Position numbers and translations under genes: made by a program
Notes under the pieces: model-generated
Told to the model about the DNA's origin: nothing
The model's database searches: none
The model's input: only the letters and a program-made list of their open reading frames with translations
IMG/VR virus record: IMGVR_UViG_3300020183_005383
Span: 1-53,365 of that record
From: a virus
Lineage: Duplodnaviria > Caudoviricetes
Strand: one strand, 5' to 3'
Length of the DNA stretch: 53,365 bases
Part shown: positions 4,869-31,541 of the stretch, in pieces
Numbering within the stretch: the stretch's first letter is position 1
Layout: each line of letters opens with the position of its first letter

Positions 4869-4870
4869 AA

Positions 4871-8137: not shown

Positions 8138-8141
8138 TTTT

Positions 8142-10644: not shown

Positions 10645-10650
10645 TTTATA

Positions 10651-11250
10651 TTATTTTAATCCTGTACTTCCAAATCCCTTATCACCTCTTTCTGAAGTTC
10701 CTAAATTGTCCATTTCTTCGAATTTTACAAACTTTCCACAAACAACAGGGCAAACCACACCTTGAGCCACTTTCATTCCTTTTTCTACAATTATTGAACT
10801 ACTATTAACATTGAATACTGGAACTTTTATCTCGCCCAAATAACCTCTGTCAACTGTACCAGGCGAATTCAGAACTATCAATCCCAAATTTATTGATAAA
10901 CCACTTTTAGTTCTTACTTGAATTTCATATCCCTCTGGTAAATCAAATGAAAGTCCTGTTGGAATAAGAGCTCTACCAAAAGCGGGAATAACAAATTTTT
11001 CAGTGGAATATAAATCAAATCCAGAATCAAGCTCGTATGCGTACGAAGGGGTTTTGGTGTCTTCGTTTAGTTTTTTGAAACGTATTACTTTTGTGTTATG
11101 TTGAAGAATAATATTCTCTTCCAAGTCTTCGAAAGACAAATCTATCAAATCTGAGATTTCATCATTTTCCAAATCTTCTCCTGAGTTTCTAATTTCTTTT
11201 TGAAATCTTTCAAACAAAGATTTCAATTCTTCCTCATAATTTTTATCCAT
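10651..11250 (-). CDS. dut: Trimeric dUTPase with acidic N-terminal extension
   Basis: SGFDL, LIPTGL, RTKSGL, GTVDRGYLGEI, RGDKGFGSTG (motifs I-V). Confidence 0.95.
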   Translation of the reverse strand: MDKNYEEELKSLFERFQKEIRNSGEDLENDEISDLIDLSFEDLEENIILQHNTKVIRFKKLNEDTKTPSYAYELDSGFDLYSTEKFVIPAFGRALIPTGLSFDLPEGYEIQVRTKSGLSINLGLIVLNSPGTVDRGYLGEIKVPVFNVNSSSIIVEKGMKVAQGVVCPVVCGKFVKFEEMDNLGTSERGDKGFGSTGLK

Positions 11251-11251
11251 A

Positions 11252-11953
11252 TTATTTTAAATTATTAATTTTTGTTACGACATCAATTAACGAACGTACA
11301 TCCGCTTCACAATAATCTGAAATACCTTTGAAATCCTTTTTATTCCAAAATGCATCATGAACTTTATTACCTGTAATTTCCATTGTTTTTGGAGACGGAA
11401 CATTGAGACAAACACACATAAGTTCTAAAGATGCTATACTTGTGTAATTTCCAAATTGCCAAAAATCTTTTGTATCAAATGCTTTTATTTCCCAAGGTTT
11501 TGTATCATACCCTGGTAAAATTTTAGGTGGAGTTAATCCGTTAATTATCATTCTTTTGGCTAAAACAGGTATATCGAAACCTTTTACGTTGTGTCCACAT
11601 AGATAAAATCCCAATTCACCTACTTTAATTAAAAGTTTTTGAACATCAAACAATATTTTTTTTTCATCTAAGTCGTTGAAGGATTGAATTTTTGTCACAT
11701 TTGTGTCGGAAACAAAAGCTACACTCACACATGCAATTCTATTAAATTCTGGCACCAAAGCAGCTCTGTTCACAAACATTTCGGAAATAGTTTTGTTAGC
11801 ATCCTCAGGAAACCTTTTTTGAAACCAATCGAAGTAGTTTTTGAATTGAAAAGATAGAGCAGGACGATTAGATTCTAATTGTTCCCAAGAAGATTCGATA
11901 CCCACAGTCTCAATGTCAATAAAAAGAAGTTTATTAAAAGGTATGTTAATCAT
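11252..11953 (-). CDS. Stand-alone DEDDy 3'-5' exonuclease (PolB-exonuclease-like)
   Basis: ExoI FIDIET, ExoII GHNVKGFD, ExoIII YCEADV. Confidence 0.9.
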   Translation of the reverse strand: MINIPFNKLLFIDIETVGIESSWEQLESNRPALSFQFKNYFDWFQKRFPEDANKTISEMFVNRAALVPEFNRIACVSVAFVSDTNVTKIQSFNDLDEKKILFDVQKLLIKVGELGFYLCGHNVKGFDIPVLAKRMIINGLTPPKILPGYDTKPWEIKAFDTKDFWQFGNYTSIASLELMCVCLNVPSPKTMEITGNKVHDAFWNKKDFKGISDYCEADVRSLIDVVTKINNLK

Positions 11954-13161
11954 ATAATTGATTTGTAAAATTCTGCTCTAGATTTTGTAACAGTTGACAA
12001 ATTATATTTGTCTTTAACAGTCTCATATAATCTTTCACCTAAATCCTCAACCATGTTCGGATTCTTAATTAGTTTTTCAATATATTTTGACCAATCAGAA
12101 TGATTTCTATTCTCATCAACTAATAAGGCATTTCCATCAACAAAATTACCATTCTGAAGTGAATGTTTCAAATCTATTGTGTAGGGGCCAAGATTTGTTG
12201 CAATCAGGGCTTTCTTGTAAAATCCCGCCTCTATAACCTTGAGTTGTGATTTTACTCTATTAAAAATTGTATTCTTAATTGGTGCTAATGAAACATCAAA
12301 TTTTGAATAGTTTTTTGCATAGGATGTGACTGGTTGTGTCCATACACGAACATATGCCTCATTAATTGCATTTTCAAAATTTTCTTTCGAGTATTGTAAT
12401 AGATACTTTTTATAATCTGAAGATACAGTTACATATTTCTGTGTAAAAATTTCTTCATATCTCGCCCAAACAGTTTCATGTGGCAGTATGTCTCTTTTCT
12501 TGTGTTCACCTGTTTGTGAGTTTATTTCAGTAACGGAACCTCTTATATCAAACCCACAAAGAACAAATTGTAATTTGTCTTTATACTTAGAAAGTTTACT
12601 AAAAGATTGGTCTAATAATTGTAAATCGTGGAGGTGTGAAGAACCACCCAACCAACCTATTCTTAATCTATCAGAGGGAGGTGTGGATTCTTTGAATTGA
12701 GGTTCATTTGGGTTGATGGCATTTGGAAAAATGACAATGTTGTTATTTACTTTTTTTATCTCGTCAGCAAAAATAGAGGTTGTTGTACTGACATATTTCG
12801 AAACCTTAAGATTTGCAACAATCTTTTCATTTATCTTATTAAATTTTATCACATCGTGAATTGGATGTTCTTTACCTGGCATCCAATAATCATCTATATC
12901 ACAAACAGTAACAATACCAAGTTTATTTAATTGTTGAATTAGTTCATTTGCCTTGTCAAAATCAGGGCCGATACTTCTGTGTAAAGCAACTATTTGATAC
13001 TTTTTGAAAAATTCTAAATCATTTACAGGGGTGTCATAAATTATATCTACATGAAAATCATCCCCATATAAATTCTGAAGAAATATATGAGGGTCGATTG
13101 ACCTAAATTTACCGACACCTGTTCTGTCGGAAGGAATCACTAAAAGATTGATTTTGGACAT
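11950..13161 (-). CDS. GT-B (GT4-like) glycosyltransferase
   Basis: GVGKFR, DIDDYW, FPNAI, IGWLGGSSH..DL, DVSLAPI...FN..KS.LK.IEAG. ATG at 13161 preferred over the track's TTG at 13182. Confidence 0.85.
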   Translation of the reverse strand: MSKINLLVIPSDRTGVGKFRSIDPHIFLQNLYGDDFHVDIIYDTPVNDLEFFKKYQIVALHRSIGPDFDKANELIQQLNKLGIVTVCDIDDYWMPGKEHPIHDVIKFNKINEKIVANLKVSKYVSTTTSIFADEIKKVNNNIVIFPNAINPNEPQFKESTPPSDRLRIGWLGGSSHLHDLQLLDQSFSKLSKYKDKLQFVLCGFDIRGSVTEINSQTGEHKKRDILPHETVWARYEEIFTQKYVTVSSDYKKYLLQYSKENFENAINEAYVRVWTQPVTSYAKNYSKFDVSLAPIKNTIFNRVKSQLKVIEAGFYKKALIATNLGPYTIDLKHSLQNGNFVDGNALLVDENRNHSDWSKYIEKLIKNPNMVEDLGERLYETVKDKYNLSTVTKSRAEFYKSII

Positions 13162-13215
13162 GATTTTTATATATGTCCCCAAAATATAACAATTGAAAAT
13201 TGATAAAGAAAGTCG

Positions 13216-15831: not shown

Positions 15832-18800
15832 ATGGCTTATCAAAATATTTTCCAATACAACTTCAGAAAAATAGGTTTGATTCCTTTTCGAGAGGTCACA
15901 GACATATGTTTAGCAAACGACGAAAGAGAATTTAATCAAGATGTTGTATTTTCTCCTCTTTTGATAGGAGATGATGATGGGAACGTTATGCCGTTCAAAT
16001 TCGATTTCAATTCCACAGGAACAACATTATGCCAGACTTCTACATGTAACTTCAATAATGATACAATAGTTTCTGAAAATTATTGGAATCCAAGTGGTAT
16101 AAATCCTAATATCTGTCCGTCTGCATCCACACTTTGTGACGTCGGTTTGACAGGGATTGACAATGGTTTAGTCAAACAAATATCAGGAGAAACTATTGAT
16201 ATCACAACAGGATTATACACAAATATTAATGACAAATTTAGTAGATTCAAGTACGACAGAAGATTCAAAATGCATCCGATTACAGGGTTTACTACAACCG
16301 CTAACAGGCTTTGGAATGACAATTCATATACCTACAATTTAAATTATACAACTTATGGAGATGAGGTGGGTTATTTTGCAAGATTACAAGGAGGTTTTTA
16401 TCAAGGATTTTATAAACTACCAGGGTATAGATATCAAATTTTTCCAGAAAGGGTCAATTTAGGTTGGACCGCCGAGATGATGTTGAGATATAGGTGGACA
16501 GGTAGTACTGATGTTGGATTAAATTACAGATATCCAGAAAATAAAGGGACATTCTTTTTCATGGGGGCAAGAGCAGAAAACAAATTTTATCACTATGCAG
16601 ATGGAAGTCCAAAACAAGACACAGGTTACACAAGAGTGACCTCAGGTCTGACTTGCATGCATACTTGTGAATGTTTGGAAACTGGAATCACCGCTTCCAA
16701 TAGTTGTATTCCTGTTTATCAACCATCGGGTCTTACATCATACACTTGTTCTTGTGAAACATATGTTTCAGTTCCTGAGTTGGACCCTTTGTATGATGGA
16801 GTATCTAACGCCATGTCGATAAGACTTTCAGGAAATACAGGAAATCCAAGACTCTGTGTAAAGGTTTATACTATAACAGGTGCTTGTGAAACCACAGGGA
16901 CTTGTACAACAGGACTTACATTTACTACGGGGACATCTGTAACAGAGTGGTGCTCAACACGGGGTATATTTGAATTTTGTTCAGGAACAACGTATTTTGA
17001 TTCGGAGCATTGGGTTCAAATAGACGCGGTATTCAGGAGGAGAGAATGGTTCGAGCTTTGTGACCTTTATGATATGGGTGGATTAGGTCTTTTAGTTTCA
17101 GAAGAATATACTGCGACCACTGCTAATAATAGTTTGAATCTCATTCGTCCCCCGATAACACACTTAAATATTGACCCGGCGACTACTGAAGTTGTACAAT
17201 TTAAAGATTCTTGGTTCGAAGAAAAAGACTATAGACTAGGTGATTTGATTATATATGTGAACGGTAGACCTTTTCTAGTCATAGAGGATTTTGAAGAAAT
17301 TATACCAAGACTATTAAACACACCAAGAGAAAAACAAATAGGTGTCGGATATAATATATCTTTAGGTGGAGGGACACAAGGATTGCACGATAATCTGACA
17401 TTGTCAGGTGGATGTCCCGAAGCTCTTTCGGGAATGACTTATCAACAGGACCCTGAATGTTTAACAACTCAAGACCTAACTCACACAATTTATTCAGGAC
17501 TAACCACTCATATAAGGTTGGAGGAGATTTTTGGCGGAAGTTTTATAGGTGATGTAAGTGCTTTCAGAATGTATACAATTCCATTGGATGCCTCAGAAAT
17601 TGCTCACAATTTCAGAATTCTTAAAAATAGATATCAACTTCTTGACCCTAACTGTATTCAATGTATTTTAGATTGTCCTAATAATGATTTGACATACGAA
17701 TTTATTCCTTGTCCCTCACCAACACCCACAATAACACCTACGGAGACTCCAACACAGACTCCGACTGAGACTCCAACATTAACGCCCACAAATACACAAA
17801 CAGAAACTCCAACTCAGACACCAACTAACACTGAAACTCCTACAAATACTCCTACGGAGACATCAACTCAAACACCAACTAACACTGAAACTCCAACAGA
17901 AACTCCAACAGAAACTCCAACTAACACGCCGACGCCAAGTATCACTGCAAGTCCAGGACAAACACCGACGGCTACGGAGACTCAGACACCTACACCTACT
18001 ACAACACAAACAAATACTCCAACAAAGGCAAGGATTCCTTTTGTTGTTTGTTCAGGTACAACCTCTATTGACGCTTGTAGTTGTATAGTTAATGGAACAA
18101 TTTGGGGTGATTATGTTGATTTCGATGCTAATACTCAGTTCTATGATTCTCCTGTAGGACCTAATACAATAGATATGACAGGATACTACTCCTACAATGG
18201 TATCTTAGTACAATTAGATTCAGGTGGATTTGAAATAGGTGGTTATTCAATTTGTCCGAGTCAAACGCCAACTCCGACAAATACTTCAACGATAACCGCA
18301 ACACCATCGGAAACTCCAACCCAAACACCAACTAACACTGAAACTCCTACAAATACACCAACGGAAACTCCAACTCAGACACCTACTAATACTGAAACTC
18401 CTACAAATACACCAACAGAAACTCCAACTCAGACACCTACTAATACTGAAACTCCTACAAATACTCCTACGGAGACATCAACTCAAACACCAACTAACAC
18501 TGAAACTCCAACTGAAACTCCAACAGAAACTCCAACTCAGACACCTACTAATACTGAAACACCTACACAAACCCCGACCAATACACAAACACCGACACCT
18601 TCTATAACAGCTAGCCAAACCCAAACACCGACACCTTCTATAACAGCTAGCCAAACCCAAACACCGACACCTTCTATAACAGCTAGCCAAACCCAAACAC
18701 CGACACCAACCTCAACTAATACGCCAACAAAAACTAATACTCCAACCCCATCAATTACTGCATCTCCGTCTACAACAGCTGCGGTCACTCCAACACCTAC

Positions 18801-19506
18801 AACGACAAGAACTCCAACACCGACTTCACTGTCAACTCTCGTTGTTCACTTCGACATAAGTAATTCATCATCTTATCCTGGCTCGGGTTCATTAATTACC
18901 GACTTATCGGGAGCAGGAAATAACGCAACTCTGAGTGGTGACTATTCTTACTCATCATCCAACAGTGGAATAATTGTAATGGGAGGAACAAATAGTTTGG
19001 CAAATATTACACAGAACGCAACCATCAACATTGCAAATACAACAACTCCTGTATCAGTAGTTATTTGGGCAAGAATACCTGCAGGTTATGCTAGTAACGA
19101 TGGTATTTGGAATAAGCAAGCACAAACAGGTGGTTTTGATGGATTCAGACTTAGTGTTGGAGGAACCAACGGTTTAATTTTTGGATTCAATGGACTATCT
19201 CAAAACTTTAATACCGCAAGTGGAAATAACGTATTCACCGCCAACACTTGGGCAATGTTTACCACGATTATTCGAGCAGGGACAAGTGCGGTTTATGTGA
19301 ATGGTAATTCAACGCCAGTGATTACACAAGCAACTTCAGATAGTTTTTTTGGACAACCGAACTTACAAATTGGACAATCAATACAAGGAGATGGTTCATA
19401 CCTTCCTATGAGTTGGGGGCAATTCAGATATTATAAAAATAAATCATTGTCGACGGCAGAAATTGCAGCACTATTCAATGCAGACAAAGCTAAGTACGGA
19501 TTATAA
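15832..19506 (+). CDS. Large Cys-rich putative virion surface protein with LamG/ConA-like domains and Thr/Pro mucin-like linkers
   Basis: Interrupted LamG-like N-terminal region (WTAEMM, IIYVNG, FIGDVSAFRMY..PL..SEI), two long TPT tracts, C-terminal LamG (HFDISNSSSYPGSG..TDLSG.GNNATL, VYVNG, FRYY.NKSLS.AEI). No signal peptide seen. Confidence 0.8.
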   Translation: MAYQNIFQYNFRKIGLIPFREVTDICLANDEREFNQDVVFSPLLIGDDDGNVMPFKFDFNSTGTTLCQTSTCNFNNDTIVSENYWNPSGINPNICPSASTLCDVGLTGIDNGLVKQISGETIDITTGLYTNINDKFSRFKYDRRFKMHPITGFTTTANRLWNDNSYTYNLNYTTYGDEVGYFARLQGGFYQGFYKLPGYRYQIFPERVNLGWTAEMMLRYRWTGSTDVGLNYRYPENKGTFFFMGARAENKFYHYADGSPKQDTGYTRVTSGLTCMHTCECLETGITASNSCIPVYQPSGLTSYTCSCETYVSVPELDPLYDGVSNAMSIRLSGNTGNPRLCVKVYTITGACETTGTCTTGLTFTTGTSVTEWCSTRGIFEFCSGTTYFDSEHWVQIDAVFRRREWFELCDLYDMGGLGLLVSEEYTATTANNSLNLIRPPITHLNIDPATTEVVQFKDSWFEEKDYRLGDLIIYVNGRPFLVIEDFEEIIPRLLNTPREKQIGVGYNISLGGGTQGLHDNLTLSGGCPEALSGMTYQQDPECLTTQDLTHTIYSGLTTHIRLEEIFGGSFIGDVSAFRMYTIPLDASEIAHNFRILKNRYQLLDPNCIQCILDCPNNDLTYEFIPCPSPTPTITPTETPTQTPTETPTLTPTNTQTETPTQTPTNTETPTNTPTETSTQTPTNTETPTETPTETPTNTPTPSITASPGQTPTATETQTPTPTTTQTNTPTKARIPFVVCSGTTSIDACSCIVNGTIWGDYVDFDANTQFYDSPVGPNTIDMTGYYSYNGILVQLDSGGFEIGGYSICPSQTPTPTNTSTITATPSETPTQTPTNTETPTNTPTETPTQTPTNTETPTNTPTETPTQTPTNTETPTNTPTETSTQTPTNTETPTETPTETPTQTPTNTETPTQTPTNTQTPTPSITASQTQTPTPSITASQTQTPTPSITASQTQTPTPTSTNTPTKTNTPTPSITASPSTTAAVTPTPTTTRTPTPTSLSTLVVHFDISNSSSYPGSGSLITDLSGAGNNATLSGDYSYSSSNSGIIVMGGTNSLANITQNATINIANTTTPVSVVIWARIPAGYASNDGIWNKQAQTGGFDGFRLSVGGTNGLIFGFNGLSQNFNTASGNNVFTANTWAMFTTIIRAGTSAVYVNGNSTPVITQATSDSFFGQPNLQIGQSIQGDGSYLPMSWGQFRYYKNKSLSTAEIAALFNADKAKYGL
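17714..18024 (+). repeat. Thr/Pro coding repeat tract 1 ([12 protein letters not shown])
   Basis: Degenerate ACx-CCx-ACx tandem repeats within the 15832 CDS. Confidence 0.95.
18256..18825 (+). repeat. Thr/Pro coding repeat tract 2
   Basis: About 190 codons of TPT repeats; includes a near-copy of 17803-17922 at 18418-18537. Confidence 0.95.
18586..18707 (+). repeat. Perfect 36-bp tandem repeat, about 3.4 copies (QTPTPSITASQT)
   Basis: CAAACACCGACACCTTCTATAACAGCTAGCCAAACC starts at 18586, 18622 and 18658, partial at 18694; no spacers. Confidence 0.95.
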
Positions 19507-19645
19507 TCGCGACTTTAAGACCTTTTATAATTCTCCAACACACACACAATTCCGCAAACACCAACCTAGACACCAATTTAGAAAAAGAAAAAATAAAAAT
19601 TAAAAAATTTTTAAATGTTCCAAGTATTTATATAAAAAAAGTAAA

Positions 19646-20656
19646 ATGGCTTGTAGTAAATATACCTTAACGAATACTGGTTCTACTATAGTAACCTTTA
19701 ATTATAGAAGATGTGATGACTCTATGTGGGAGTATCAAGTTGGATTATCACCAAATGAAACCAAAAATATTTGGTTGATTGATTACACATATTCAACCGC
19801 ACAATCCAATTTTATTAATTTGGTTGACCAAGGGGAATTTCCACCTCCTAATGTACCACCAACACCAACACCAACACCAAGTTCTACAGCAAATGTAACG
19901 CCAACACCTACTACAACACCTACAGCTACTGAAACTCCAACCCAAACACCAACTAACACTCCGTCACCAACACAAACTAGTACACCTACGAATACACAAA
20001 CACCAACTAACACTCCGTCACCAACACAAACTAATACACCTACACCAACAAATACACCAACAAATACATTAACACCAACTACAACAACCACTCAGACTCC
20101 AACACCATCGCAAACTAGATTTAGTTTTAGTGTTGGTTCAGGTTCTACTTTTAACGAAGCATGTGCTTCAGGAATTGTTGGTACAATTTTTGGTGACGAA
20201 CCTTCATTCGATGGCAACATTCAGTTCTATCCTCAAAGCGTAGGTCCTTCTACAATGTTGGCAGGTTTCTATGCATCCTCAGGTATTGTTACCCAAATTG
20301 CATCGAACGGATTACAAGTAGGAGCATTTGCAGCATGTTCTGTAATTGCAACTCCTACACCAACAATTACAACAACTCCTTCACCAACACCAACTTTTGC
20401 TTTCTACACATATAGTTTAGGTTCAGGTGCAACCGCAAACGACGCTTGTATTGATTTTGGAGATTCACCACAAACAGTCTATGGTACAGTTGCGGGTGGT
20501 ATCGGACCAAACATCGGGGAGACACTTTATCAAACACCAGGTAATCCACCAACTAATCCAGTTGCTGATGGATACTACTCAAACGGAACCGCATGGTTTG
20601 AAGTATCGGGTGGTTCGGGCTTAATTACATCGAGTGACCCTAACGGATGCGATTAA
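19646..20656 (+). CDS. Thr/Pro-rich modular putative virion protein with two Cys-bounded modules
   Basis: N-terminal MACSKY..C domain, TPT tract, module, short PT linker, second module ending GCD; preceded by TATTTATA at 19625. Confidence 0.8.
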
Positions 20657-20675
20657 TTAAAAATTAAAATAAATT

Positions 20676-20705
20676 AAAACCCTCTACTTTCGTGGAGGGT
20701 TTTTT
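20676..20705 (+). terminator. Intrinsic terminator
   Basis: AAAACCCTCTAC-TTTC-GTGGAGGGTTTT hairpin (one G-U pair) followed by a T run. Confidence 0.8.
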
Positions 20706-20730
20706 ATTTTTAATACAAAATACATTTTCA

Positions 20731-21993
20731 ATGAAAATATTCGTACAAATTGCTTCTTACAGGGACCCACAACTTGTCCCCACAATTGAGAACATGGTGG
20801 AAAATGCCAAGAAACCTAAAAATTTGGTTATTGGTGTTGCACGACAGTATAGCGAATCAGATGGTTTCGATAATTTAGACAAATATAGGAAAGATAAAAG
20901 ATTTAGAATCTTGGATATTCCTTATCAAGAAGCTAAAGGTGTTTGTTGGGCTAGACATTTGGTGCAACAATTATATGATGGTGAAACATACACACTTCAG
21001 ATAGATTCGCACATGAGATTCGTAAAAGATTGGGATGATATCCTAATCAAAATGATAAAGGGTCTACAGAAAGACGGGTATAAAAAACCTTTACTTACGG
21101 GTTATGTACCCTCTTTTGACCCTGAAAATGACCCTGCGGGTAGAGCACAAGATGCGTGGAGGATGGTATTTGATAGATTTATCCCTGAAGGAGCGGTTTT
21201 CTTCTTACCCGAGACAATACCAGGTTGGAGAGAAATGACAAAACCCGTACCTGCAAGATTTTACTCCGCACACTTTTGTTTTACAGTAGGAACTTTCTCG
21301 AAAGAGGTACAACACAATCCTGAGTATTATTTCCACGGTGAAGAGATTTCAATTGCCGCTAGAGCATATACTTGGGGTTATGATTTGTTCCATCCACACC
21401 TGCCAATAGTTTATCATGAGTATACTCGTAAAGGTAGAACTAAACAATGGGACGATGACAAAACTTGGGGAGACAAAAATAAACATTCTCATTTAACAAA
21501 CAGAAAGCTATTCGGAATGGATGGGGAAAAACAAGAGGGTCATGATGGTCCCTATGGTTTCGGACCAATCCGAAACTTTAGGGAATATGAAAGATATTCT
21601 GGATTATTATTCGAAAAAAGAGCGGTAGACCAACATTGTATTGATAAAAAATACCCACCAAGTCCAAGAATCGAGGACGAAGAAGATTGGAAGAAAAGCT
21701 TCTCTACAATATTCAAACATTGTATTGACGTGGGATACCCAAGTGTTCCTGAAAAAGATTATGATTTTTGGGTTGTCGCATTTCACGGACCTGACGACCA
21801 AACCTTGTTCAGAAAAGATGCGGACAAAAATGAAATTGCAGGATTCATGAGAGACCCTGACAAGTATTGTAAAATTTGGAGAGAGTTTCCAACTACTGTA
21901 TTACCTAATTATTGGGTAGTTTGGCCCCACTCAGAATCTAAAGGATGGTGTGATAGATTGACTGGTCAATTAACTCATAATCACATAAGTTAA
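20731..21993 (+). CDS. GT60-like polypeptide/hydroxyproline alpha-GlcNAc transferase
   Basis: IFVQIASYRD, AKGVCWAR, LQIDSHMRF..DWD, LLTGY, FHGEE, RAYTWGYDLF.P..IVYH.Y, as in the Skp1 GlcNAc-transferase family. ATG at 20731 chosen because the track's GTG lies inside the terminator. Confidence 0.88.
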   Translation: MKIFVQIASYRDPQLVPTIENMVENAKKPKNLVIGVARQYSESDGFDNLDKYRKDKRFRILDIPYQEAKGVCWARHLVQQLYDGETYTLQIDSHMRFVKDWDDILIKMIKGLQKDGYKKPLLTGYVPSFDPENDPAGRAQDAWRMVFDRFIPEGAVFFLPETIPGWREMTKPVPARFYSAHFCFTVGTFSKEVQHNPEYYFHGEEISIAARAYTWGYDLFHPHLPIVYHEYTRKGRTKQWDDDKTWGDKNKHSHLTNRKLFGMDGEKQEGHDGPYGFGPIRNFREYERYSGLLFEKRAVDQHCIDKKYPPSPRIEDEEDWKKSFSTIFKHCIDVGYPSVPEKDYDFWVVAFHGPDDQTLFRKDADKNEIAGFMRDPDKYCKIWREFPTTVLPNYWVVWPHSESKGWCDRLTGQLTHNHIS

Positions 21994-22736
21994 TGAAGTT
22001 TAAAGATATACCTAAGTTTGTTGTCAATTTGGATAGAAGAGTTGATAGACTTGAAAGTATTTCTTTCGAGCTTTCATATTTGGGATGGGAATGGGAGAGA
22101 TTTTCAGGAATTGACACCAATTCATATATGGGAATAACTCGCTCAACCTTAGAGATAATAAAAATTGCTAAAGAGAGAAATTATCCTCAAGTTATGATTA
22201 TTGAGGACGATTGTTCTGCGATGCCCTATGCTAATAGTTTATTGGATAAAATAGAATCCGAATATCCTAATTTGGAATATGCAATTTTCAATTTAGCTCC
22301 TACACAGAACCGCGAGATAAAAATATCTAGCGAATATAAATTATTGCTCGATATGACTAATACACCCCCTGCACCTGAAGATGCCCGTGGTATATACGCA
22401 GCGAACATGATTATTTATGACCAATCCATATATGATGAGATGTTTGATATTGCTCTCACAGGATTTTCAAGTGGTGATTTCTTTCATGCTTTAGATGATT
22501 TTACGTGGAAGTTTATTGTTCAAAAGAAACAAAGTTATTGTCCTATTTTGCCGATAGCACCACAAAAGGCAGGATATTCTAATATTTCAGAAGGTATGTA
22601 TGGTAATTGGTATCTTCAAACATATAATTGGAACAGGTGGACCGAGGTTAAAATACCAAACGAGTTCATGGATGAAGGAAGAGTTATGGAAATGAAAAGA
22701 AAAAAAGAATATAAAGATTTTTATTATGTCAGTTAA
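21993..22736 (+). CDS. GT25 family glycosyltransferase
   Basis: FVVNLDRRVDR, ERFSGID, VMIIEDD, QKAGYSNI. Confidence 0.82.
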   Translation: MKFKDIPKFVVNLDRRVDRLESISFELSYLGWEWERFSGIDTNSYMGITRSTLEIIKIAKERNYPQVMIIEDDCSAMPYANSLLDKIESEYPNLEYAIFNLAPTQNREIKISSEYKLLLDMTNTPPAPEDARGIYAANMIIYDQSIYDEMFDIALTGFSSGDFFHALDDFTWKFIVQKKQSYCPILPIAPQKAGYSNISEGMYGNWYLQTYNWNRWTEVKIPNEFMDEGRVMEMKRKKEYKDFYYVS

Positions 22737-23607
22737 GTTTATTACTTCAATATACAGTGATTTATATGGAACTGAGTTTGGAGGCAGACCAAATAGAGGT
22801 GGTCATTATAGATTTAGTTTATTGTCACTTATAAAAATGACCGACGCTGACTTTCTCTGTTATACCTCGGATAGAGAAATAGATTCTCTCAAAAGATTTT
22901 TTTATGAAGAACATTCTATTGACTCCACAAAATTGAAATTCGAAGTTTTTGATATTTCAAACACAAAGTTTAAAGATTTAATCAACCAATACAAAGTAGT
23001 TGAGGATATCAAAAGAGGGGATAGATGTATAGAAATCCAATATTGTAAGTTTCATTGGTGGTGGAATGAAGATAAATCATATGACTATTATTATTGGATT
23101 GACGCTGGATTATCACATTGCGGGTTGATACCTTTAAAATATCTAAAGAGTGAACATATGATGGCGAGATATTATGAGAGCACTCTTTTCAATAATGACT
23201 TTCTGAAAAATGTAATTGAAGATACAAAAGATAAGTTCTTAATATTAGGAAAAGAAAACGTGAGGAATTATTGGTCGGGAACTGTCAATGCAAAGTGGTA
23301 TAAAGAATATGATAGGTCTATACATATTATAGGTGGACTTTTTGGTGGACATAAATCCAAATGGGATGAGATTGTTAACTTGTTTGAAGACTATACGACT
23401 AAAATAATTTCCGAAGATAAAGGTTTACCACATGAGGAAAACGTTATGACTTTGATGTGGTACAACCACACTGAATTATTTGAAAGAAAACATTTTGATA
23501 TTTGGTGGTGCAAAGATAATGCACCTAGAGGTACATCTGAAGAATTGTTCCAAAATAATAAAAGTTTCTTTAGAATCTTAGAAGAATTCAATAGGATATA
23601 TGAGTAA
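22726..23607 (+). CDS. HtrL/YibB(WlaTC)-like putative glycosyltransferase
   Basis: FITSIY, YYYWIDAGL, IIGGLFGG, HEENVM. Confidence 0.65.
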   Translation: MSVKFITSIYSDLYGTEFGGRPNRGGHYRFSLLSLIKMTDADFLCYTSDREIDSLKRFFYEEHSIDSTKLKFEVFDISNTKFKDLINQYKVVEDIKRGDRCIEIQYCKFHWWWNEDKSYDYYYWIDAGLSHCGLIPLKYLKSEHMMARYYESTLFNNDFLKNVIEDTKDKFLILGKENVRNYWSGTVNAKWYKEYDRSIHIIGGLFGGHKSKWDEIVNLFEDYTTKIISEDKGLPHEENVMTLMWYNHTELFERKHFDIWWCKDNAPRGTSEELFQNNKSFFRILEEFNRIYE

Positions 23608-25270
23608 TATTACTTTAGTGACTGGTATATGGGATATTGGTAGGTCTGAACTTTCTGAGGGATGGTCAAGACCCTACAATCATTATTTAGATAAGTTCGA
23701 ACAATTATTAAAGATAGATTGTAATTTGATTATTTTTGGTAGTAGAGAATTGGAACAATTTGTTTTAGACAGAAGAGATATTTCCAAAACTCAATTTATA
23801 TTTAGGGATTTATCTTGGTTCAGAGAGAATGAGTTTTTCAATAGGATTCAAGAAATTAGAACAAATCAAGATTGGTTTAATTTGTCTGGTTGGTTAAAAG
23901 ATTCAACGCAAGCTAAGTTAGAAAATTATAATCCTTTGGTTATGTCTAAGGTTTATCTTTTACATGATGCGAAGATTATGGATAGATTCGATTCTGAACA
24001 TTTATTTTGGATAGATGGAGGTATAACCAATACTGTTCATCCAGGTTATTTCACACATGACAAAGTAATTGAAAAACTTTCAAAATATATTTCGAAGTTT
24101 TCATTTATATGTTTCCCATATGAAGCAAACAACGAGATACACGGATTTGAATATAATCAACTGAATAGTTTAGCGGGTGCTAAAGTCAACAAAGTTGCAA
24201 GAGGGGGCTTTTTCGGTGGGCCAAAAGAGTCAATTTCAGATATCAACTCAATTTATTATGGTTTGATGAAAGAAACTTTATCCAAGGGATTGATGGGTAC
24301 TGAAGAATCAATCTTTTCAATAATGACTTACAAACACGCCGATTTGATAAACTACTTTGAAATAGAGGGAAATGGTCTGATTGGAAAATTCTTCGAGGAT
24401 TTAAAGAACGATGAGTTGAAACCAAAGAGTGAGTCTGTAGTTAAGAGTGTCAACAAATTAGATATAAATAAAGTCGGCTTGTATGTTATAACTTTCAATA
24501 GTCCCAAACAATTTAAGACATTGATTGATTCAATGTTGGCCTATGATAAGGATTATATAAATAAAACAAAAAAGTTCTTATTAGATAATTCTAGTGATGA
24601 ATCAACTTTTGGTGAATATAAATTATTGTGTGACAAATACGGGTTTGAACATATTAAAAAAGATAATTTGGGAATATGTGGCGGTAGACAATTCATTGCA
24701 GAGCACTTCAATGATACTGATTTAGATTATTATTTATTCTTTGAAGATGATATGTTTTTTTATCCTGACGAAGGAGTTTGCAGAAACGGATTTAACAGAT
24801 ACGTTCAAAACCTTTATACCAAATCTTTAGAAATAGTAAAAAAAGAAAACTTGGATTTCATTAAATTAAATTATTCCGAGTTTTATGGTGACAATGGAAC
24901 TCAGTGGTCTTGGTATAATGTTCCTCAAGATGTAAGAACAAAATTTTGGCCAAACAACCCGAGACTTCCACAGATGGGACTTGACCCGAATGCACCAAAA
25001 ACAGCTTTCGAAAAGATTCTTAGTCATAAAGGTGTACCATATACTTGTGGTGAAGTTTATTATTGTAATTGGCCTCAGATTGTAAGTAGAGACGGTAACA
25101 AAAAAATGTTCTTAGACACAACTTGGGCACATCCATTCGAACAAACGTGGATGAGTCATATGTATCAATTGACAAAGAAAGGTGAGTTATTTAGTGGTTT
25201 ACTATTATTAACACCCACCGAACATAACAGGTTTGAACATTACGAAAGGGAGTTACGTAAAGAGTCATAA
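23600..25270 (+). CDS. HtrL/YibB-like domain fused to a GT2-like GT-A domain
   Basis: TLVTGIWDIGR, Y..LVMSK, FWIDGG, RGGFFGG, GTEESI; C-terminal ITFN, LDNSS, NLGICGGR, FFEDDM. Confidence 0.72.
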   Translation: MSNITLVTGIWDIGRSELSEGWSRPYNHYLDKFEQLLKIDCNLIIFGSRELEQFVLDRRDISKTQFIFRDLSWFRENEFFNRIQEIRTNQDWFNLSGWLKDSTQAKLENYNPLVMSKVYLLHDAKIMDRFDSEHLFWIDGGITNTVHPGYFTHDKVIEKLSKYISKFSFICFPYEANNEIHGFEYNQLNSLAGAKVNKVARGGFFGGPKESISDINSIYYGLMKETLSKGLMGTEESIFSIMTYKHADLINYFEIEGNGLIGKFFEDLKNDELKPKSESVVKSVNKLDINKVGLYVITFNSPKQFKTLIDSMLAYDKDYINKTKKFLLDNSSDESTFGEYKLLCDKYGFEHIKKDNLGICGGRQFIAEHFNDTDLDYYLFFEDDMFFYPDEGVCRNGFNRYVQNLYTKSLEIVKKENLDFIKLNYSEFYGDNGTQWSWYNVPQDVRTKFWPNNPRLPQMGLDPNAPKTAFEKILSHKGVPYTCGEVYYCNWPQIVSRDGNKKMFLDTTWAHPFEQTWMSHMYQLTKKGELFSGLLLLTPTEHNRFEHYERELRKES

Positions 25271-25286
25271 CAATATATTTATTGAT

Positions 25287-25664
25287 ATGGATTTTTTTAT
25301 CAAGAAAAATGCAACCCTTCCCGTCTTAAAAATGCAAGTTGTAAAAGACGGTCGCGCTGGTTATATCCAACTAACGGAAGATATTCCAGTGTCAACAATT
25401 TTTTTTACAATGATTAATGAAGAAACAGGTATACCTAAAATTGTATCTGCACCTTGTGAGTTTGTTAATTTAATTTTAGATTTAGGTGCTCCACCTGAAT
25501 ATTATATTTATTTCAAGTTTACAAAAAAAGATACAAATGAAGTTGGTAGATATGTTGGTCAATTTTTAATTAAAAATGATGAAGGTGATTTGATTCTACC
25601 AATTAGAGAACAACTTTATATTAATGTACAAGAAAGTTTCATTTCGGAAACTGCTTGTTGTTGA
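25287..25664 (+). CDS. Hypothetical phage protein (possible beta-rich structural adaptor, BppU-N-like)
   Basis: MDFFIKKNATLP.L...F.M...Y.F...DT...G.Y.GQF.I pattern; ATG at 25287 follows TATTTAT. Confidence 0.55.
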   Translation: MDFFIKKNATLPVLKMQVVKDGRAGYIQLTEDIPVSTIFFTMINEETGIPKIVSAPCEFVNLILDLGAPPEYYIYFKFTKKDTNEVGRYVGQFLIKNDEGDLILPIREQLYINVQESFISETACC

Positions 25665-25693
25665 TTGACTCTAATCTCACAATTTTTTATATT
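25665..25693 (+). promoter_or_regulatory. Sigma70-like promoter upstream of DNA polymerase
   Basis: TTGACT (25665-25670), 17-nt spacer, TATATT (25688-25693). Confidence 0.55.
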
Positions 25694-25754
25694 TATTGAG
25701 GAAGGTAAATTTCACCAAAGTGTGAAAGCTAATGAACCACCCTACAAAATTGAT

Positions 25755-28544
25755 ATGATATCTACCAAAGAAATTGAATCATTTCTGCAAGGAAATGACT
25801 CCGAAACTTTTATAGTTGCAATTGAGTTCGATTACGCATCTAATTCCATTTTCAAAATCAAAGAAGAACCAGGTAAAGGAAAAGAAATCCGAAATGATAC
25901 TTTTATTCCTTTCGCGTGGGTCGGAGATTTACGTGGTCTTAACTTTTATAATAATTCCAAAATAGCCCAAAAACAGGGTATGTCAAAATACGGAATTGTT
26001 ATTGAAAAACTTGAAACCAAAGGTGATGAAAGACTTGAGAAAGGTTTGACCTTCATGATAAAATCTCTCAAAGGTTATAGAGAATTGATTCAGTTTTTTA
26101 GAGATGGTGGTTGTGACCCTTGGGGTGACCAGGCAAAGGATAAAATTATGATTTTACCGCCAGTAGAACAATATCTTATCTCTAAAGAGAAAAGATTGTT
26201 TAAAGGATATGATGATTATGACCAAGTTACTCGTCTTGTTTTTGACTTAGAGACTAACGCTCTTAACCCAAAAGATGGTCGCATCTTTATGATAGGAATC
26301 AAAACGAACAAAGGATATCATAAGGTGATTGAGTGTCTCGATGAGTCACAAGAAAAAGGTGCTATTATTGAGTTTTTCAATATTGTTAATGAAATCAAAC
26401 CATCAATTATTGGTGGGTACAATTCAGCAAACTTTGACTGGAATTGGTTATTTGAAAGAGGTCAAAGATTGGGTATTGATATGAGAAAATCAATCAAATC
26501 CTTACACCCTCAACATTCATATACAAGAAAAGAAACAATATTAAAGTTAGCAAACGAGGTTGAGGATTTCACTCAAACCTCCATTTGGGGGTATAATGTA
26601 ATTGATATTATTCATGCGGTTCGAAGGGCTCAGGCTATCAATTCAAACATCAAAGCGGTAGGTCTTAAGTATATTACAAAATATATTGGTCAGGAAGCTC
26701 CTGACCGTGTTTATATTGACCACACGGATATAGGAAAAATGTATGCGGCTAAGGAAGAGTATTGGTTGAATACTAAAAACGGAAAATATAAAAAGGCCTC
26801 TGAGTATGCGGATTTGGATAAAAAGTTCCCTGGTGTATATGTCAAGACCACTGGTGATAATTTGGTTGAAAGATATCTTAATGATGACTTAGAAGAAACC
26901 TTAGCGGTTGATAAAGAATTCAATCAAGCGTCCTTTTTACTTGCCTCTATGATTCCAACAACATATGAAAGAGTTGCCACTATGGGTACCGCTACACTTT
27001 GGAAGATGCTTATGTTGGCTTGGTCATACAAACACAACTTGCCCATCCCTGAAAAACAACAGAAGACAGATTTTGTTGGTGGACTTTCTCGTCTTCTGAA
27101 AGTTGGTTACTCAAAGAATGTTCTAAAACTTGACTTTTCCTCTCTTTATCCATCTATACAACTTGTTCATGACGTGTTTCCCAAATGTGATGTTTCAGGA
27201 GCCATGAAAGCAATGCTCAAGTATTTCCGTGACACCCGTATCAGATATAAACAACTTGCCGAAGAGTTTGAAAAAACTGACCCACAAAAATCTATATCAT
27301 ATTCAAACAAACAATTACCAATCAAGATTTTTATAAACTCGATGTTTGGTGCATTATCTGCTCCACAAGTTTTTGCTTGGGGTGACATGTATATGGGAGA
27401 ACAGATTACTTGTACTGGAAGACAGTATCTCCGTCAAATGATTAAGTTTTTCATTAGCAAAGGTTATACCCCGCTCGTAATGGATACCGACGGTGTAAAC
27501 TTTTCGAGCCCCGAAGACGTTGATACACACAGGTATATTGGTCGAGGATTAAATTGGAAGGTCAACGTTGGAAAAGAATACAACGGCCCTGATGCTGATG
27601 TAGCTGAATATAACGACATCTTCATGAGAGGTGAAATGGCTTTAGATACAGATGGTATTTGGCCTTCATGTATAAACCTTTCTAGAAAAAATTATGCGGT
27701 CATGGATGTTAAAGGGAAGATAAAGTTGACTGGTAATTCCATCAAATCAAAAAAACTTCCATTGTATATTGAAACGTTCTTAGATAAGGGGATTAAGATG
27801 TTACTAGAGGGTAAAGGGAAAGATTTCATCGAATACTATTACGAGTATCTCAAAGTAATATTTGACCAAAAGATTCCACTTGCTCAAATTGCTCAAAGAG
27901 CTAAAATCAAATTAACTTTGGATGATTACAGAAAAAGATTGACGCAGAAGACCAAAGCGGGAAATAGTATGTCTCGTATGGCTCATATGGAACTTGCAAT
28001 CCAACAAAATCTAAGTGTCAATTTGGGTGACGTAATAATGTATGTTAATAACGGTAAAAAATCTTCACAGGGTGATGTTCAAAAGATGACGGCTAAACAA
28101 ATCAAGGACCTAAATGAATATAACAAAACTCAGAATCCTCAAGCTAAAATGGTTGAAGATGGTGTTATTGTAAATTGTTACATGTTAGACTCAAGTACTT
28201 TTGACTCAAACCCAAATCTTACGGGAGATTATAATGTACCAAGAGCAATAGTCACTTTCAATAAAAGAATAGAACCTCTATTGGTTGTGTTCAAACAAGA
28301 GGTCAGGGATGGTTTAATTGTAGCAGACCCTGAGAACAGAGGTATTTTCACAAGTGCACAGTGTGAGTTGATAAACGGTATGCCTTTTGAAGATGGCGAC
28401 CAAGATAAGTTAGAAGAAGATGTTCTCAATATGACAGAACAAGAATTGGATTATTGGAAACGTAGAGGTTTGAAACCTACTTACATCTATGAACTCGCTG
28501 ATAAAGATTGGGAAGGAAAATTAGGATTGCTTCAAACCGTCTGA
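25755..28544 (+). CDS. polB: Family B DNA polymerase with proofreading domain
   Basis: FDLET, GYNSANFD, YLNDD; LDFSSLYPS, KIFINSMFG, MDTDG, KNYA. ATG at 25755 preferred over the track's TTG. Confidence 0.96.
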   Translation: MISTKEIESFLQGNDSETFIVAIEFDYASNSIFKIKEEPGKGKEIRNDTFIPFAWVGDLRGLNFYNNSKIAQKQGMSKYGIVIEKLETKGDERLEKGLTFMIKSLKGYRELIQFFRDGGCDPWGDQAKDKIMILPPVEQYLISKEKRLFKGYDDYDQVTRLVFDLETNALNPKDGRIFMIGIKTNKGYHKVIECLDESQEKGAIIEFFNIVNEIKPSIIGGYNSANFDWNWLFERGQRLGIDMRKSIKSLHPQHSYTRKETILKLANEVEDFTQTSIWGYNVIDIIHAVRRAQAINSNIKAVGLKYITKYIGQEAPDRVYIDHTDIGKMYAAKEEYWLNTKNGKYKKASEYADLDKKFPGVYVKTTGDNLVERYLNDDLEETLAVDKEFNQASFLLASMIPTTYERVATMGTATLWKMLMLAWSYKHNLPIPEKQQKTDFVGGLSRLLKVGYSKNVLKLDFSSLYPSIQLVHDVFPKCDVSGAMKAMLKYFRDTRIRYKQLAEEFEKTDPQKSISYSNKQLPIKIFINSMFGALSAPQVFAWGDMYMGEQITCTGRQYLRQMIKFFISKGYTPLVMDTDGVNFSSPEDVDTHRYIGRGLNWKVNVGKEYNGPDADVAEYNDIFMRGEMALDTDGIWPSCINLSRKNYAVMDVKGKIKLTGNSIKSKKLPLYIETFLDKGIKMLLEGKGKDFIEYYYEYLKVIFDQKIPLAQIAQRAKIKLTLDDYRKRLTQKTKAGNSMSRMAHMELAIQQNLSVNLGDVIMYVNNGKKSSQGDVQKMTAKQIKDLNEYNKTQNPQAKMVEDGVIVNCYMLDSSTFDSNPNLTGDYNVPRAIVTFNKRIEPLLVVFKQEVRDGLIVADPENRGIFTSAQCELINGMPFEDGDQDKLEEDVLNMTEQELDYWKRRGLKPTYIYELADKDWEGKLGLLQTV

Positions 28545-30005: not shown

Positions 30006-31541
30006 TTATTCAATTTCGTGTAATAAAGCATTTTTTGGGAATATGTAACGACCGTTTGATATTTCACAATCGTTTTTGAAAATTAAAACATGATTTGATT
30101 TAGTTTGAAAAAATATCATCCAATCCACATTATATTTTTTCACATCTGCGTCTGTAAAAATTACATAAGTGTCTTTTGTTGTTTTGAGATAATTGTAGGG
30201 TTTGACCTGACATGAGTGAGCTCTATCTTTTATTGTGATAATTAAATCAACACCTTCAATTGCATCCATTTTTTTACCCGCTCCACTAGTTTTTTCGATT
30301 GTAGCATCACCCTCAAAATATAAATCTATTTTTTTGAATACACTGTTTTCAGAATCCATTCCACGTTTCCAAGTTTTCAACAAAACTTTTAAGATATTGA
30401 TGAACTCAGAATTTTCTTTTGAATAAAGTTGGTTAGCAAAATAATCTAAAGCTTTACCAAAACGAATAATTTCTTCAGGTCTCCTTTCCTTTTCATTATA
30501 AAAATTGAACATTTTTTCTGGTCTACCTTTTTCTTTAATTAGGTTGTTGACCGCTTTGACCAATAAACAAAAAGTGTTATGGTTGGTATTAAGATTGTTC
30601 AACACAGACCTGCCTTGAGATTCCAAATTATAGAAACCAGACATGGTATCATTTGTTTGTTCCGCCCAAGAATCACCAAAAACTTTTCTAAGTGAATTAG
30701 TAATCGCTTTGATGTATAGCCTTTTCATAGTCTCATCGAAAAGGATTTCTTTATATACTGAAACATCGTCCTTTGAACAAAAGGTGGCAGTGTCCTTTTC
30801 ATCAATCAATCTTTTGTACTCAATTTGTTCAAGTAATTTCGTTTTAACTTTCATCTCGAAAAGTTCAGATACAAACTCCCAATTTACTACTTTCCAAAAG
30901 TTTGATATGTACTCGTCTCTTTTGTTTTTATATTTTAAATAATAGGCGTGTTCCCATAAATCTAACCCTAAGAGAGGAAACCCACCCCCTTCAATCACGT
31001 TCATCAGAGGGTTGTCTTGGTTCGGAGTAGACATAATTTTAAGTTGATTTTTTGGTGTCAATAGTAGCCACACCCAACCAGACCCAAATCTATCTTTAGC
31101 AATGGTCTCAAACTTTTTTTTGAAGTTTGTAAACGTGCCAAACTCTTTGGTTATCTTTTTGAATAGTTCGCCTTCCAATTTCTTTGGTTCGGGTGTCAAC
31201 ATATTCCAAAAAAGTGCGTGGTTAAAAGCACCCCCAGCGTTATTTCTAATTGTCTTATCGTATCTGTCGATATTTTTGATGATGTTTTCTAAATCGACAT
31301 CTCCTTTCTTTTTCTTCGATAACGCATCGTTGAGTTTATCAACATACCCTTTGTAATGTTTGTTGTAATGGAAGTTCATTGTCTCGGGGTCAATGAATTG
31401 TTTCAGGGCTGTGTAGGAATAAGGTAATTTCTCTATTCCGATTTTTTTCATCTCTGTAATCAACAACGACTTTTCATTTTGTATGTGTCTTTCTTGAATT
31501 TGTTTTTCAATTTGTTGAATCCTCTTCTCTGTGTTCTGCAT
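30006..31541 (-). CDS. Fe/Mn superoxide dismutase (Mn-type signature) with long C-terminal extension
   Basis: LPYSY.AL, HYNKH..Y, NNAGG..NH..FW, FGSGW.WL, NQD, DLWEHAYY; C-terminal D...GVD...QVK. Confidence 0.9.
   Translation of the reverse strand: MQNTEKRIQQIEKQIQERHIQNEKSLLITEMKKIGIEKLPYSYTALKQFIDPETMNFHYNKHYKGYVDKLNDALSKKKKGDVDLENIIKNIDRYDKTIRNNAGGAFNHALFWNMLTPEPKKLEGELFKKITKEFGTFTNFKKKFETIAKDRFGSGWVWLLLTPKNQLKIMSTPNQDNPLMNVIEGGGFPLLGLDLWEHAYYLKYKNKRDEYISNFWKVVNWEFVSELFEMKVKTKLLEQIEYKRLIDEKDTATFCSKDDVSVYKEILFDETMKRLYIKAITNSLRKVFGDSWAEQTNDTMSGFYNLESQGRSVLNNLNTNHNTFCLLVKAVNNLIKEKGRPEKMFNFYNEKERRPEEIIRFGKALDYFANQLYSKENSEFINILKVLLKTWKRGMDSENSVFKKIDLYFEGDATIEKTSGAGKKMDAIEGVDLIITIKDRAHSCQVKPYNYLKTTKDTYVIFTDADVKKYNVDWMIFFQTKSNHVLIFKNDCEISNGRYIFPKNALLHEIE

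Follow-up and report, generated by a model that had tools for sequence, protein, structure and literature searches.

The 53,365-nt viral record IMGVR_UViG_3300020183_005383 (Duplodnaviria; Caudoviricetes), analysed here over its full length and referred to as the window, contains a locus in which two genes for Thr/Pro-rich (PT) proteins, PT1 and PT2, are followed on the same strand by four tightly coupled genes, the first of which encodes a protein of glycosyltransferase (GT) family GT60 (Table 1). A preliminary description of this DNA had proposed the locus as a candidate mucin-type O-glycosylation system, with a terminator between substrates and enzymes and with neither signal peptide nor transmembrane (TM) helix in the products. 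All of these structural features were recovered. The open reading frames (ORFs) lie where they had been placed, the four GT-side genes (20731-25270, +) overlap by 1-11 nt, and the hairpin between the two gene groups is evident. Additionally, neither a TM-grade segment (the highest Kyte-Doolittle 19-mer scored 1.52) nor a signal-like N-terminus was evident from the hydropathy of seven proteins, as would be expected if proteins were glycosylated by soluble enzymes in the cytoplasm.

Table 1. Features of the glycosylation locus and of its surroundings in the window
Feature	Position	Strand	Description
PT1	15832..19506	+	1224 aa; candidate acceptor
PT2	19646..20656	+	336 aa; candidate acceptor
Intrinsic-terminator-like hairpin	20676..20703	+	12-bp stem, 5 GC pairs, T-run; between PT and GT genes
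GT60-like glycosyltransferase	20731..21993	+	420 aa from ATG; PF11397; GT-A; candidate initiating polypeptide N-acetylhexosamine (HexNAc)-transferase
GT25-like protein	21993..22736	+	in variable slot; candidate extending glycosyltransferase
p293	22726..23607	+	single-domain HtrL-like protein
p556	23600..25270	+	HtrL_YibB N-domain and C-terminal GT-A domain
p143	25233..25664	+	small conserved protein after p556; annotated TTG start
Family-B DNA polymerase (PolB)	25665..28544
Sugar-gene island	1860..13182	-	GT10, GDP-sugar 4,6-dehydratase-type, C-methyltransferase, two FkbM methyltransferases, GT2, GT2_5+GT4, GT1-like
Protein with superoxide dismutase domain	30006..31541	-	511 aa
Tail-sheath-like protein	36305..39526	+	1073 aa

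PT1 begins with a Cys-rich N-domain of 620 aa, ends with a LamG/ConA-like domain and carries in between a first PT tract, a Cys domain of 70 aa and two further PT tracts. The tracts occupy residues 621-738, 809-935 and 941-1006, and residues 1068-1212 match LamG (PF13385, E 9.5e-10). In PT2, an N-module of 61 aa is followed by a PT tract of 96 aa and by two small globular domains with a short PT tract between them (tracts at residues 62-157 and 230-257). The two proteins share a module, residues 734-808 of PT1 being homologous to residues 158-231 of PT2 (43% identity, E 5e-14), so that the 70-aa domain of PT1 corresponds to the first globular domain of PT2. Together, the tracts of PT1 and PT2 contain 212 Ser and Thr residues and about 20-25% Pro, and their DNA is made up of imperfect tandem repeats of 12-54 bp. 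A comparable tract was found in none of the other ORFs of at least 100 aa in the window, and a reversed control of the PT-coding DNA pattern gave 0 matches in five phage genomes. Homologs of the PT1 N-domain stand first in the PT block of related phages; an Atlas search with this domain returned viral hypothetical clusters only, some of them bearing LamG_3.

The GT60-like protein scored 229.8 bits with PF11397, for which the cut-off is 21 (E 8.6e-68; profile positions 2-44 and 94-304), and matched phrog_24687 with E 2e-164, whereas NCBIfam gave no match for it or for the GT25-like protein, p293, p143 and the PT proteins. Homologs can be aligned with the ATG form from its first residue onwards, and an alternative GTG start at 20692 falls within the stem of the terminator. 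Across 34 aligned sequences, neither D92-S93-H94 (DSH, a DxH motif) nor H229 varies, the latter being the putative C-terminal metal-binding His. DxH in place of DxD is described as specific to GT27 and GT60 (PMC7185993). An AlphaFold (AF2) model of the protein reached a predicted local distance difference test score (pLDDT) of 95.4, and its top Foldseek matches in the PDB were all N-acetylgalactosamine (GalNAc) transferases (GalNAc-T1/2/4/7/10/12, E 5e-11 to 1e-8), with the teichoic-acid and galactan GT-A enzymes TarS, RmlT and GlfT2 ranked below them. The model also has an additional conserved beta-rich C-terminal domain of about 100 aa (about residues 320-420). Pfam found no ricin-type lectin domain in the protein, yet the GalNAc-T alignments span about 435 columns. 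The relation of GT60 to the animal GT27 mucin initiators, stated in the preliminary description, is borne out by the Foldseek ranking and the DxH motif, and the predicted fold and the motif together support a kinship of the phage enzyme with mucin-type initiators.

According to the account of the family in PMC8724618, GT60 consists of polypeptide alpha-N-acetylglucosamine (GlcNAc) transferases that start mucin-type O-glycans in Dictyostelium and Trypanosoma cruzi; the characterised acceptors are Thr residues of mucin-like domains or the hydroxyproline (Hyp) of Skp1, and the member acting on Skp1 (Gnt1) is cytoplasmic and is followed by a bifunctional two-domain GT, PgtA. The PF11397 family as a whole is large, with 4526 representative clusters at E 1e-3 or better, many of which carry the domain in tandem. 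Some of these proteins reach giant size (1600-2460 aa) and match the profile in as many as four stretches, which represent tandem GT60 domains.

For the partner enzymes, the family names given earlier stood in part. The HtrL-like nature of p556 and p293 was confirmed by Pfam and hhalign, respectively. Residues 3-255 of p556 match HtrL_YibB (PF09612; E 3.4e-19, 69.9 bits against a cut-off of 24.1), and p293, which has no Pfam match, aligned with the N-domain profile of p556 homologs (95.5%, E 1.6e-8, 201 columns). By its scores against the NCBIfam YibB equivalogs (TIGR02192; 73.1 vs 264.9 and 39.9 vs 342 bits), well below the cut-offs, p556 is a member of the HtrL_YibB family and not a YibB equivalent. 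The GT25 (PF01755) assignment proved marginal, at 24.8 bits against a cut-off of 24 over residues 7-44 (profile positions 3-40 of 199), and the GT25-like protein had no NCBIfam or PHROG match and no homolog found in phage XacN1. The name GT2 had no Pfam match in p556, in which the second GT-A domain is evident by fold only. The p556 model (pLDDT 92.1) shows a tandem GT-A arrangement like those of LH3, COLGALT1, K4CP (K4 chondroitin polymerase), LARGE1 and heparosan synthase, and it also matches the single GT-A domains of SpsA, TarP and TarS. In the C-domain, E382-D383-D384 is invariant in 33 sequences.

Gene order was compared in close relatives, for which the 80 best of at least 379 IMG/VR contigs with a close GT60 homolog were taken (GT60 identity 83-94%, complete genomes of 321-326 kb included). 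The order in these 80 is GT60, slot gene or genes, p293, p556, p143 and PolB, preceded by a PT block whose ORFs number one to five and differ greatly in length. Several relatives have two to seven other genes in place of the GT25-like one; in two relatives, the slot contents included a methyltransferase, an RXYLT1-like protein, GT2-like proteins, GT10 fucosyltransferases and a GT7-type domain. A NodU/CmcH-type carbamoyltransferase stands directly after GT60 in the XacN1 group (XacN1 ORF333) and in several environmental lineages and is absent from the window; its place inside the cassette suggests carbamoylated glycans in that group and those lineages. Meanwhile, p556 is kept as the partner of GT60 in both phages and bacteria. 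The alignment of homologs starts at residue 19 of p143, so that its true start probably lies 54 nt downstream of the annotated TTG. The p143 module also forms the N-terminus of PT-tract proteins of 250-700 aa in other lineages, and there PT proteins lie on both sides of the cassette.

The association of GT60 with PT genes was then considered at several levels. In each of the 69 evaluable members of the close-relative set, one or more PT ORFs lay upstream of GT60 on the same strand, directly adjoining it in 67 of them, a result that reflects one shared ancestry. A second set of 80 loci was picked by GT60 alone with a distant query, with 34-71% identity to the window enzyme and a GC content of 26-49%. 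Here, a PT ORF lay within 10 kb in 55 of the 80 loci and was the immediate upstream ORF in 30 of the 76 evaluable ones. After both sets were pooled, dereplicated by single linkage on GT60 identity and limited to clusters having 12 kb or more of flank, a PT ORF was present within 10 kb in 12 of 19 lineages at 70% identity, 29 of 40 at 80% and 45 of 57 at 90%. Within genomes, a codon-neutral TPTxTPT pattern was searched in 22 long GT60-bearing contigs, and 301 of the 657 PT-coding matches fell inside a GT60 neighbourhood of roughly 21 kb, against 95.7 expected, with enrichment in 19 of 20 informative contigs. As controls, 35 viral contigs of at least 27 kb were sampled via a PolB motif, and 19 of them (about 1.6 Mb) were searched. 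PT tracts were found in 20 of the 22 long GT60-bearing contigs and in none of these 19 controls (Fisher p 9e-10). In the reverse direction, PF11397 was found in 17 of 48 contigs selected by a longer PT pattern and in 1 of 19 controls (p 0.014).

Among isolated phages, a tblastn search of 50,697 records with the GT60 protein (E 1e-5) gave only four matches, the jumbo phages XacN1 and Xoo-sp13 and the Stenotrophomonas phages CM1 and RAS14 (44-49% identity). The cassette of this group consists of GT60, the carbamoyltransferase, a p293 homolog (31%) and a p556 homolog (41%). The polymerases of the window and of the XacN1 group could be aligned only locally, with 30% identity over 122 residues. Long PT-type tracts are present in at least 12 proteins of XacN1. 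Specifically, ORF325 lies downstream of the baseplate wedge genes, ORF369, ORF370 and ORF372 lie beside the tail-sheath genes, and further tracts occur in ORFs 232-237 (six proteins with one tract each) and in the giant ORF384. At least two glycoproteins have been reported in XacN1 virions, and the main text of the same paper suggests that the two annotated GTs of the phage make them and names none of the PT-tract ORFs as virion proteins (PMC5852040). One of those two GTs, ORF334, is the GT60 homolog.

The pair of GT60 and p556 also occurs in cellular genomes. When prokaryotes were scanned with one genome for each species, at least 559 GT60 relatives emerged, and neighbourhoods were taken for the best 80 of them. 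A p556 homolog adjoins GT60 in 27 of these 80, from several phyla, and a PT ORF lies in the flank in 17. In Burkholderiaceae (for example, Ralstonia sp. 25C), GT60 stands within a type VI secretion system (T6SS) cluster, in the order TssF, TssG, TssA, a fimbrial-like protein and GT60, followed by convergent VgrG, TagF and TssM. Seven of nine VgrG homologs in GT60-bearing T6SS loci have Thr/Pro-rich C-terminal tails, four of which are almost pure (TP)n with as many as about 70 repeats. Where VgrG adjoins GT60, its C-terminus consists of (TP)n or of related repeats of Pro, Thr and Glu that reach about 150 residues. In Ralstonia, Achromobacter and Paraburkholderia ferrariae (genomes of 5.7-7.9 Mb), 52 of 53, 31 of 31 and 41 of 41 (TP)6-coding matches, respectively, lie in the VgrG tail, and in another GT60-bearing genome a TP-tailed VgrG is located about 4 kb from two tandem GT60 genes. 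By comparison, none of 11 TP regions from nine genomes lacking GT60 lies in VgrG. VgrG is a homolog of phage baseplate proteins and is assembled in the cytoplasm; the T6SS arrangement therefore parallels the phage one. The core of GT60, an HtrL-like protein and a tandem GT is common to environmental jumbo phages, the XacN1 group and many bacteria.

In all, the components of a mucin-type system, an initiating-transferase family and Ser/Thr/Pro-rich repeats, are encoded side by side and co-occur across lineages. We favour, with moderate confidence, the reading that the locus encodes a cytoplasmic mucin-type protein O-glycosylation system of the phage, in which GT60 primes Thr in the PT tracts and its partners extend the glycan. 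During infection, GT60 would use a UDP-sugar to attach HexNAc (alpha-GlcNAc, if the analogy holds) to Thr and perhaps also to Ser. The acceptors would be the PT tracts of the phage's own modular proteins, among them PT1, PT2 and PT proteins from other loci. Extension and tailoring of the glycan would fall to p293, p556 and the exchangeable enzyme of the slot (a GT25-like one here; GT10, GT7-like, RXYLT1-like or methyltransferase genes in relatives), and the upstream sugar island may supply unusual donors. The island may account for the synthesis of methylated deoxy-sugar donors, donor supply and additional GTs. The products would be extended, protease-resistant linkers with dense glycans in adhesin- or fibre-like virion appendages. 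We infer the placing of the PT proteins in such appendages, the identity of the sugar as GlcNAc and the role of the tracts as stiff stalks that present LamG. The hypervariability of both the PT proteins and the set of extenders would be in keeping with an arms race at the surface of the host.

A wider proposal is that GT60 and p556 form an ancient mobile prokaryotic mucin-type module for Thr/Pro appendages of contractile injection machines, namely jumbo-phage fibres and adhesins and VgrG tails of the (TP)n type. Such a module would correspond, in prokaryotes and viruses, to the eukaryotic GT60/GT27 mucin-type and Skp1 pathways and may even have given rise to them, and its swappable extenders would give strain-specific phage glycan coats. 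We offer this only tentatively and consider it rather doubtful at present.

Several observations weigh against PT-tract glycosylation. A strong terminator splits the PT genes from the GT genes. Seven of the 19 lineages dereplicated at 70% have no PT ORF within 10 kb of GT60, the within-genome enrichment is just about threefold, and many of the GT60-bearing contigs come from one broad jumbo-phage group, so that the counts are not independent events. Two GT60-bearing contigs (122 kb, 88% complete; 114 kb, 66% complete) contain no PT-coding match. Some GT60-bearing viral lineages have a different gene context, with no PT-coding tract in up to 122 kb, and stand as exceptions to the link. Complete relatives carry further PT clusters far from GT60, and the notion that PT tracts are restricted to the GT60 neighbourhood was rejected on that ground. 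In one complete relative (about 305-319 kb), a second cluster of three PT-tract proteins is divergent from a 1229-aa FkbM+GT1/GT4+GT9 fusion. Likewise, PF11397 is missing from six of nine near-complete PT-bearing phage records and present in three, and a requirement of GT60 for PT tracts was rejected accordingly. Among 151 Burkholderiaceae genomes, the (TP)6 pattern occurs in 3 of 6 genomes with GT60 and in 43 of 145 without it (p 0.37; the reversed control was noisy), and a genome-level association of GT60 with TP repeats in this family was rejected. In addition, PDB sequence and profile searches with GT60 gave no useful match to any solved structure, Skp1 Gnt1 included; the searches with GT60, p556 and their profiles returned only a 25-residue match (E 0.86) and a DUF89 match (E 0.005). 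As regards the preliminary description, the direct succession of PT genes and GT60 held in 67 of 69 close relatives, and the linkage across large phages held in the control comparison and in the dereplicated lineages; neither is exclusive, given the PT loci elsewhere in complete relatives and the PT records without GT60.

The remaining adverse points are those in favour of a different acceptor. The HtrL_YibB family has been tied to lipooligosaccharide (LOS) and lipopolysaccharide (LPS) loci (PMC4172580), LPS biosynthesis is the annotated role of the GT25 family, the XacN1 cassette has a GT9 heptosyltransferase-type gene in its vicinity, a GT9 domain stands beside a PT cluster in a relative, and a review of jumbo phages, in its treatment of polymorphic GT clusters, connects them with diversification of outer polysaccharides (PMC7824862). 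Considering also that the terminator uncouples PT from GT genes, the cassette might remodel a glycan of the host envelope (LPS/LOS core, O-antigen or capsule), for example as a block to superinfection, with the PT proteins as unglycosylated neighbours in a hypervariable accessory region. We consider this unlikely. Fold and DxH motif point to the type of the polypeptide GalNAc-transferases (ppGalNAc-Ts), no membrane-bound priming transferase, flippase, polymerase or TM segment was seen in the cassette, and an envelope function leaves the cross-lineage PT link and the VgrG (TP)n tails unexplained. Moreover, the characterised GT60 enzymes covered in PMC8724618 all act on polypeptides, and XacN1 virions contain glycoproteins (PMC5852040). 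Another alternative, to which we likewise give little credence, keeps protein as the acceptor and moves the sugar off the PT tracts, to capsid or tail-tube subunits; the PT tracts would then be plain flexible linkers, close to the GTs through a shared late or accessory location. Mycobacteriophage GTs are described as glycosylating their own capsid and tail-tube proteins (PMC12363180), PT tracts and GT60 are each found in some phages or viral contigs that lack the other, and the glycoproteins of XacN1 are not named in the main text of that paper (PMC5852040). However, the known GT60 and GT27 acceptors presented in PMC8724618 and PMC7185993 are Thr/Ser/Pro-rich repeats, an immediate-upstream PT ORF recurs in several GT60 lineages of 34-71% identity, and in three bacterial genomes essentially the sole (TP)n tract adjoins GT60.

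Two further possibilities concern the chemistry of the acceptor. The sugar could be placed on Hyp and not on Thr, as in Skp1 and plant extensins, after a phage prolyl hydroxylase had acted on Pro of the PT tracts. A characterised GT60, Skp1 Gnt1, does act on Hyp (PMC8724618), the Pro content of the tracts would allow it, and each complete relative of the window has three matches to the 2-oxoglutarate-Fe(II) oxygenase family PF13640. But these oxygenase genes are distant from the cassette, XacN1, Xoo-sp13 and RAS14 yielded none despite their cassette and PT tracts, and no such gene was found in the window, which leaves this route quite improbable. The acceptor could also be neither protein nor envelope, such as phage DNA bases or a small molecule. 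The cassette adjoins PolB here and lies near PolB and RNase H in XacN1, and dUTPase and exonuclease genes are scattered through the sugar island. Glycosylation of phage DNA is well known. To our knowledge, however, the phage DNA glucosyltransferases lie outside this family; the window showed no gene of the hydroxymethylase type, the fold suggests a polypeptide GT, and the presence of the GT60-p556 pair in bacterial T6SS clusters does not fit. We regard such an acceptor as very improbable indeed.

The proposed PT-tract system can be compared with several known ones. With the enzymes of CAZy GT60 (Dictyostelium GntB and Skp1 Gnt1; the T. cruzi enzyme), the phage protein shares PF11397, the DxH motif and a GT-A fold nearest to GT27. 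The succession of GT60 and p556 resembles that of soluble cytoplasmic Gnt1 and the bifunctional two-domain PgtA in the Skp1 pathway. In the literature search, no printed link between HtrL and GT74 was found, so p556 as a PgtA analogue remains an analogy. Unlike the protist systems, the candidate system described here stands in a phage or bacterial context, lacks a Golgi anchor, has the extra beta domain of about 100 aa and is paired with a partner whose N-domain is HtrL-like. The animal GT27 ppGalNAc-Ts are the best structural matches, share the DxH motif and, putatively, the C-terminal His of the metal site, and densely modify tandem repeats rich in Ser, Thr and Pro, to which the PT tracts are comparable as candidate substrates. 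They differ in sequence (about 12-17% identity), possibly in their ricin-type lectin domain, for which Pfam gave no match here, and in their location, which is the Golgi there and predicted to be the cytoplasm here.

Among viruses, virion glycosylation in mycobacteriophages was reportedly described by Freeman et al. in 2023 (Che8 gp110, Corndog gp38 and Myrna). There, as proposed here, phage GTs modify the phage's own structural proteins in the host cytoplasm, which is experimentally shown for the mycobacteriophages and would apply by inference to the present locus. The mycobacteriophage enzymes are other ones, the acceptors there are capsid and tail-tube subunits and not modular proteins with PT tracts, and none of the GT60 tblastn matches in the 50,697 phage records came from a mycobacteriophage (a search made with GT60 and not with p293 or p556). 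Giant viruses, with the capsid glycans of chloroviruses and the fibrils and collagen-like protein of mimivirus, similarly have sugar-nucleotide and GT clusters that decorate virion proteins and are clade-specific and variable, and p556 resembles the LH3/COLGALT1-type tandem GTs; these viruses are eukaryotic and use other GT families and linkages. In the passages concerned, GT60 is listed without a function for one giant algal virus (the PkV RF01 preprint) and for a freshwater virome. LPS/LOS core loci share with the cassette the HtrL_YibB domain of p556, the HtrL-like p293 and the weak GT25 match of the slot gene. They differ in that p556 falls far below the YibB equivalog cut-off, is fused to a second GT-A domain and is paired with GT60, with no lipid-A or core genes around. 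Phage virion glycosylation in mycobacteriophages, glycosylation by giant viruses and mucin-type initiation by GT60 in protists are thus already known. A literature search whose coverage mostly excluded subscription journals found no paper that gives phage or bacterial GT60 a function or links GT60 to PT tracts or VgrG tails.

As to the source of the DNA, CheckV put the completeness of the record at 18%, which for a 53-kb record implies a genome of about 300 kb. Besides PolB, the window encodes an SNF2 helicase, a tail-sheath-like protein and several very large ORFs. The combination of PolB, SNF2 helicase, a sheath-like protein of such length and huge ORFs therefore indicates a fragment of a jumbo myophage. 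A megablast search of positions 20000-28500 against isolate phages gave no match, so no isolate is near at the DNA level. The tail-sheath-like protein is unusually long, and the sheath C-terminal domain matches only its last ~100 residues, below the Pfam cut-off (24.8 vs 26.9 bits). In the 511-aa protein, the first ~226 residues form a complete Fe/Mn superoxide dismutase and the other ~285 residues have no family match. The nearest cellular matches of GT60 (67-70% identity) are contigs of Saprospiraceae/Bacteroidia metagenome-assembled genomes, a hint either at mis-binned phage or at a host in Bacteroidota. SprB repeats in PT-cluster proteins of one relative also point to a Bacteroidota host.

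Considering the fold and motif of GT60 together with its gene neighbourhoods, the locus represents a plausible and testable form of phage protein glycosylation. The hypothesis is directly testable because isolates (CM1 and RAS14) and culturable bacteria (Paraburkholderia and Cupriavidus) carry the module. If it is true, mucin-type initiation on Thr/Pro repeats, a process thought to be eukaryotic, would also run in bacteriophages and in bacterial secretion machines, and the thousands of prokaryotic PF11397 proteins would gain a first function. It would explain the hypervariable PT proteins and extender GTs, and it would offer a soluble, cytoplasmic, E. coli-compatible toolkit for mucin-like glycoproteins. 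For phage biology, the glycosylation of virion proteins would then extend from mycobacteriophages to abundant environmental jumbo phages, of which the window has at least 379 close relatives.

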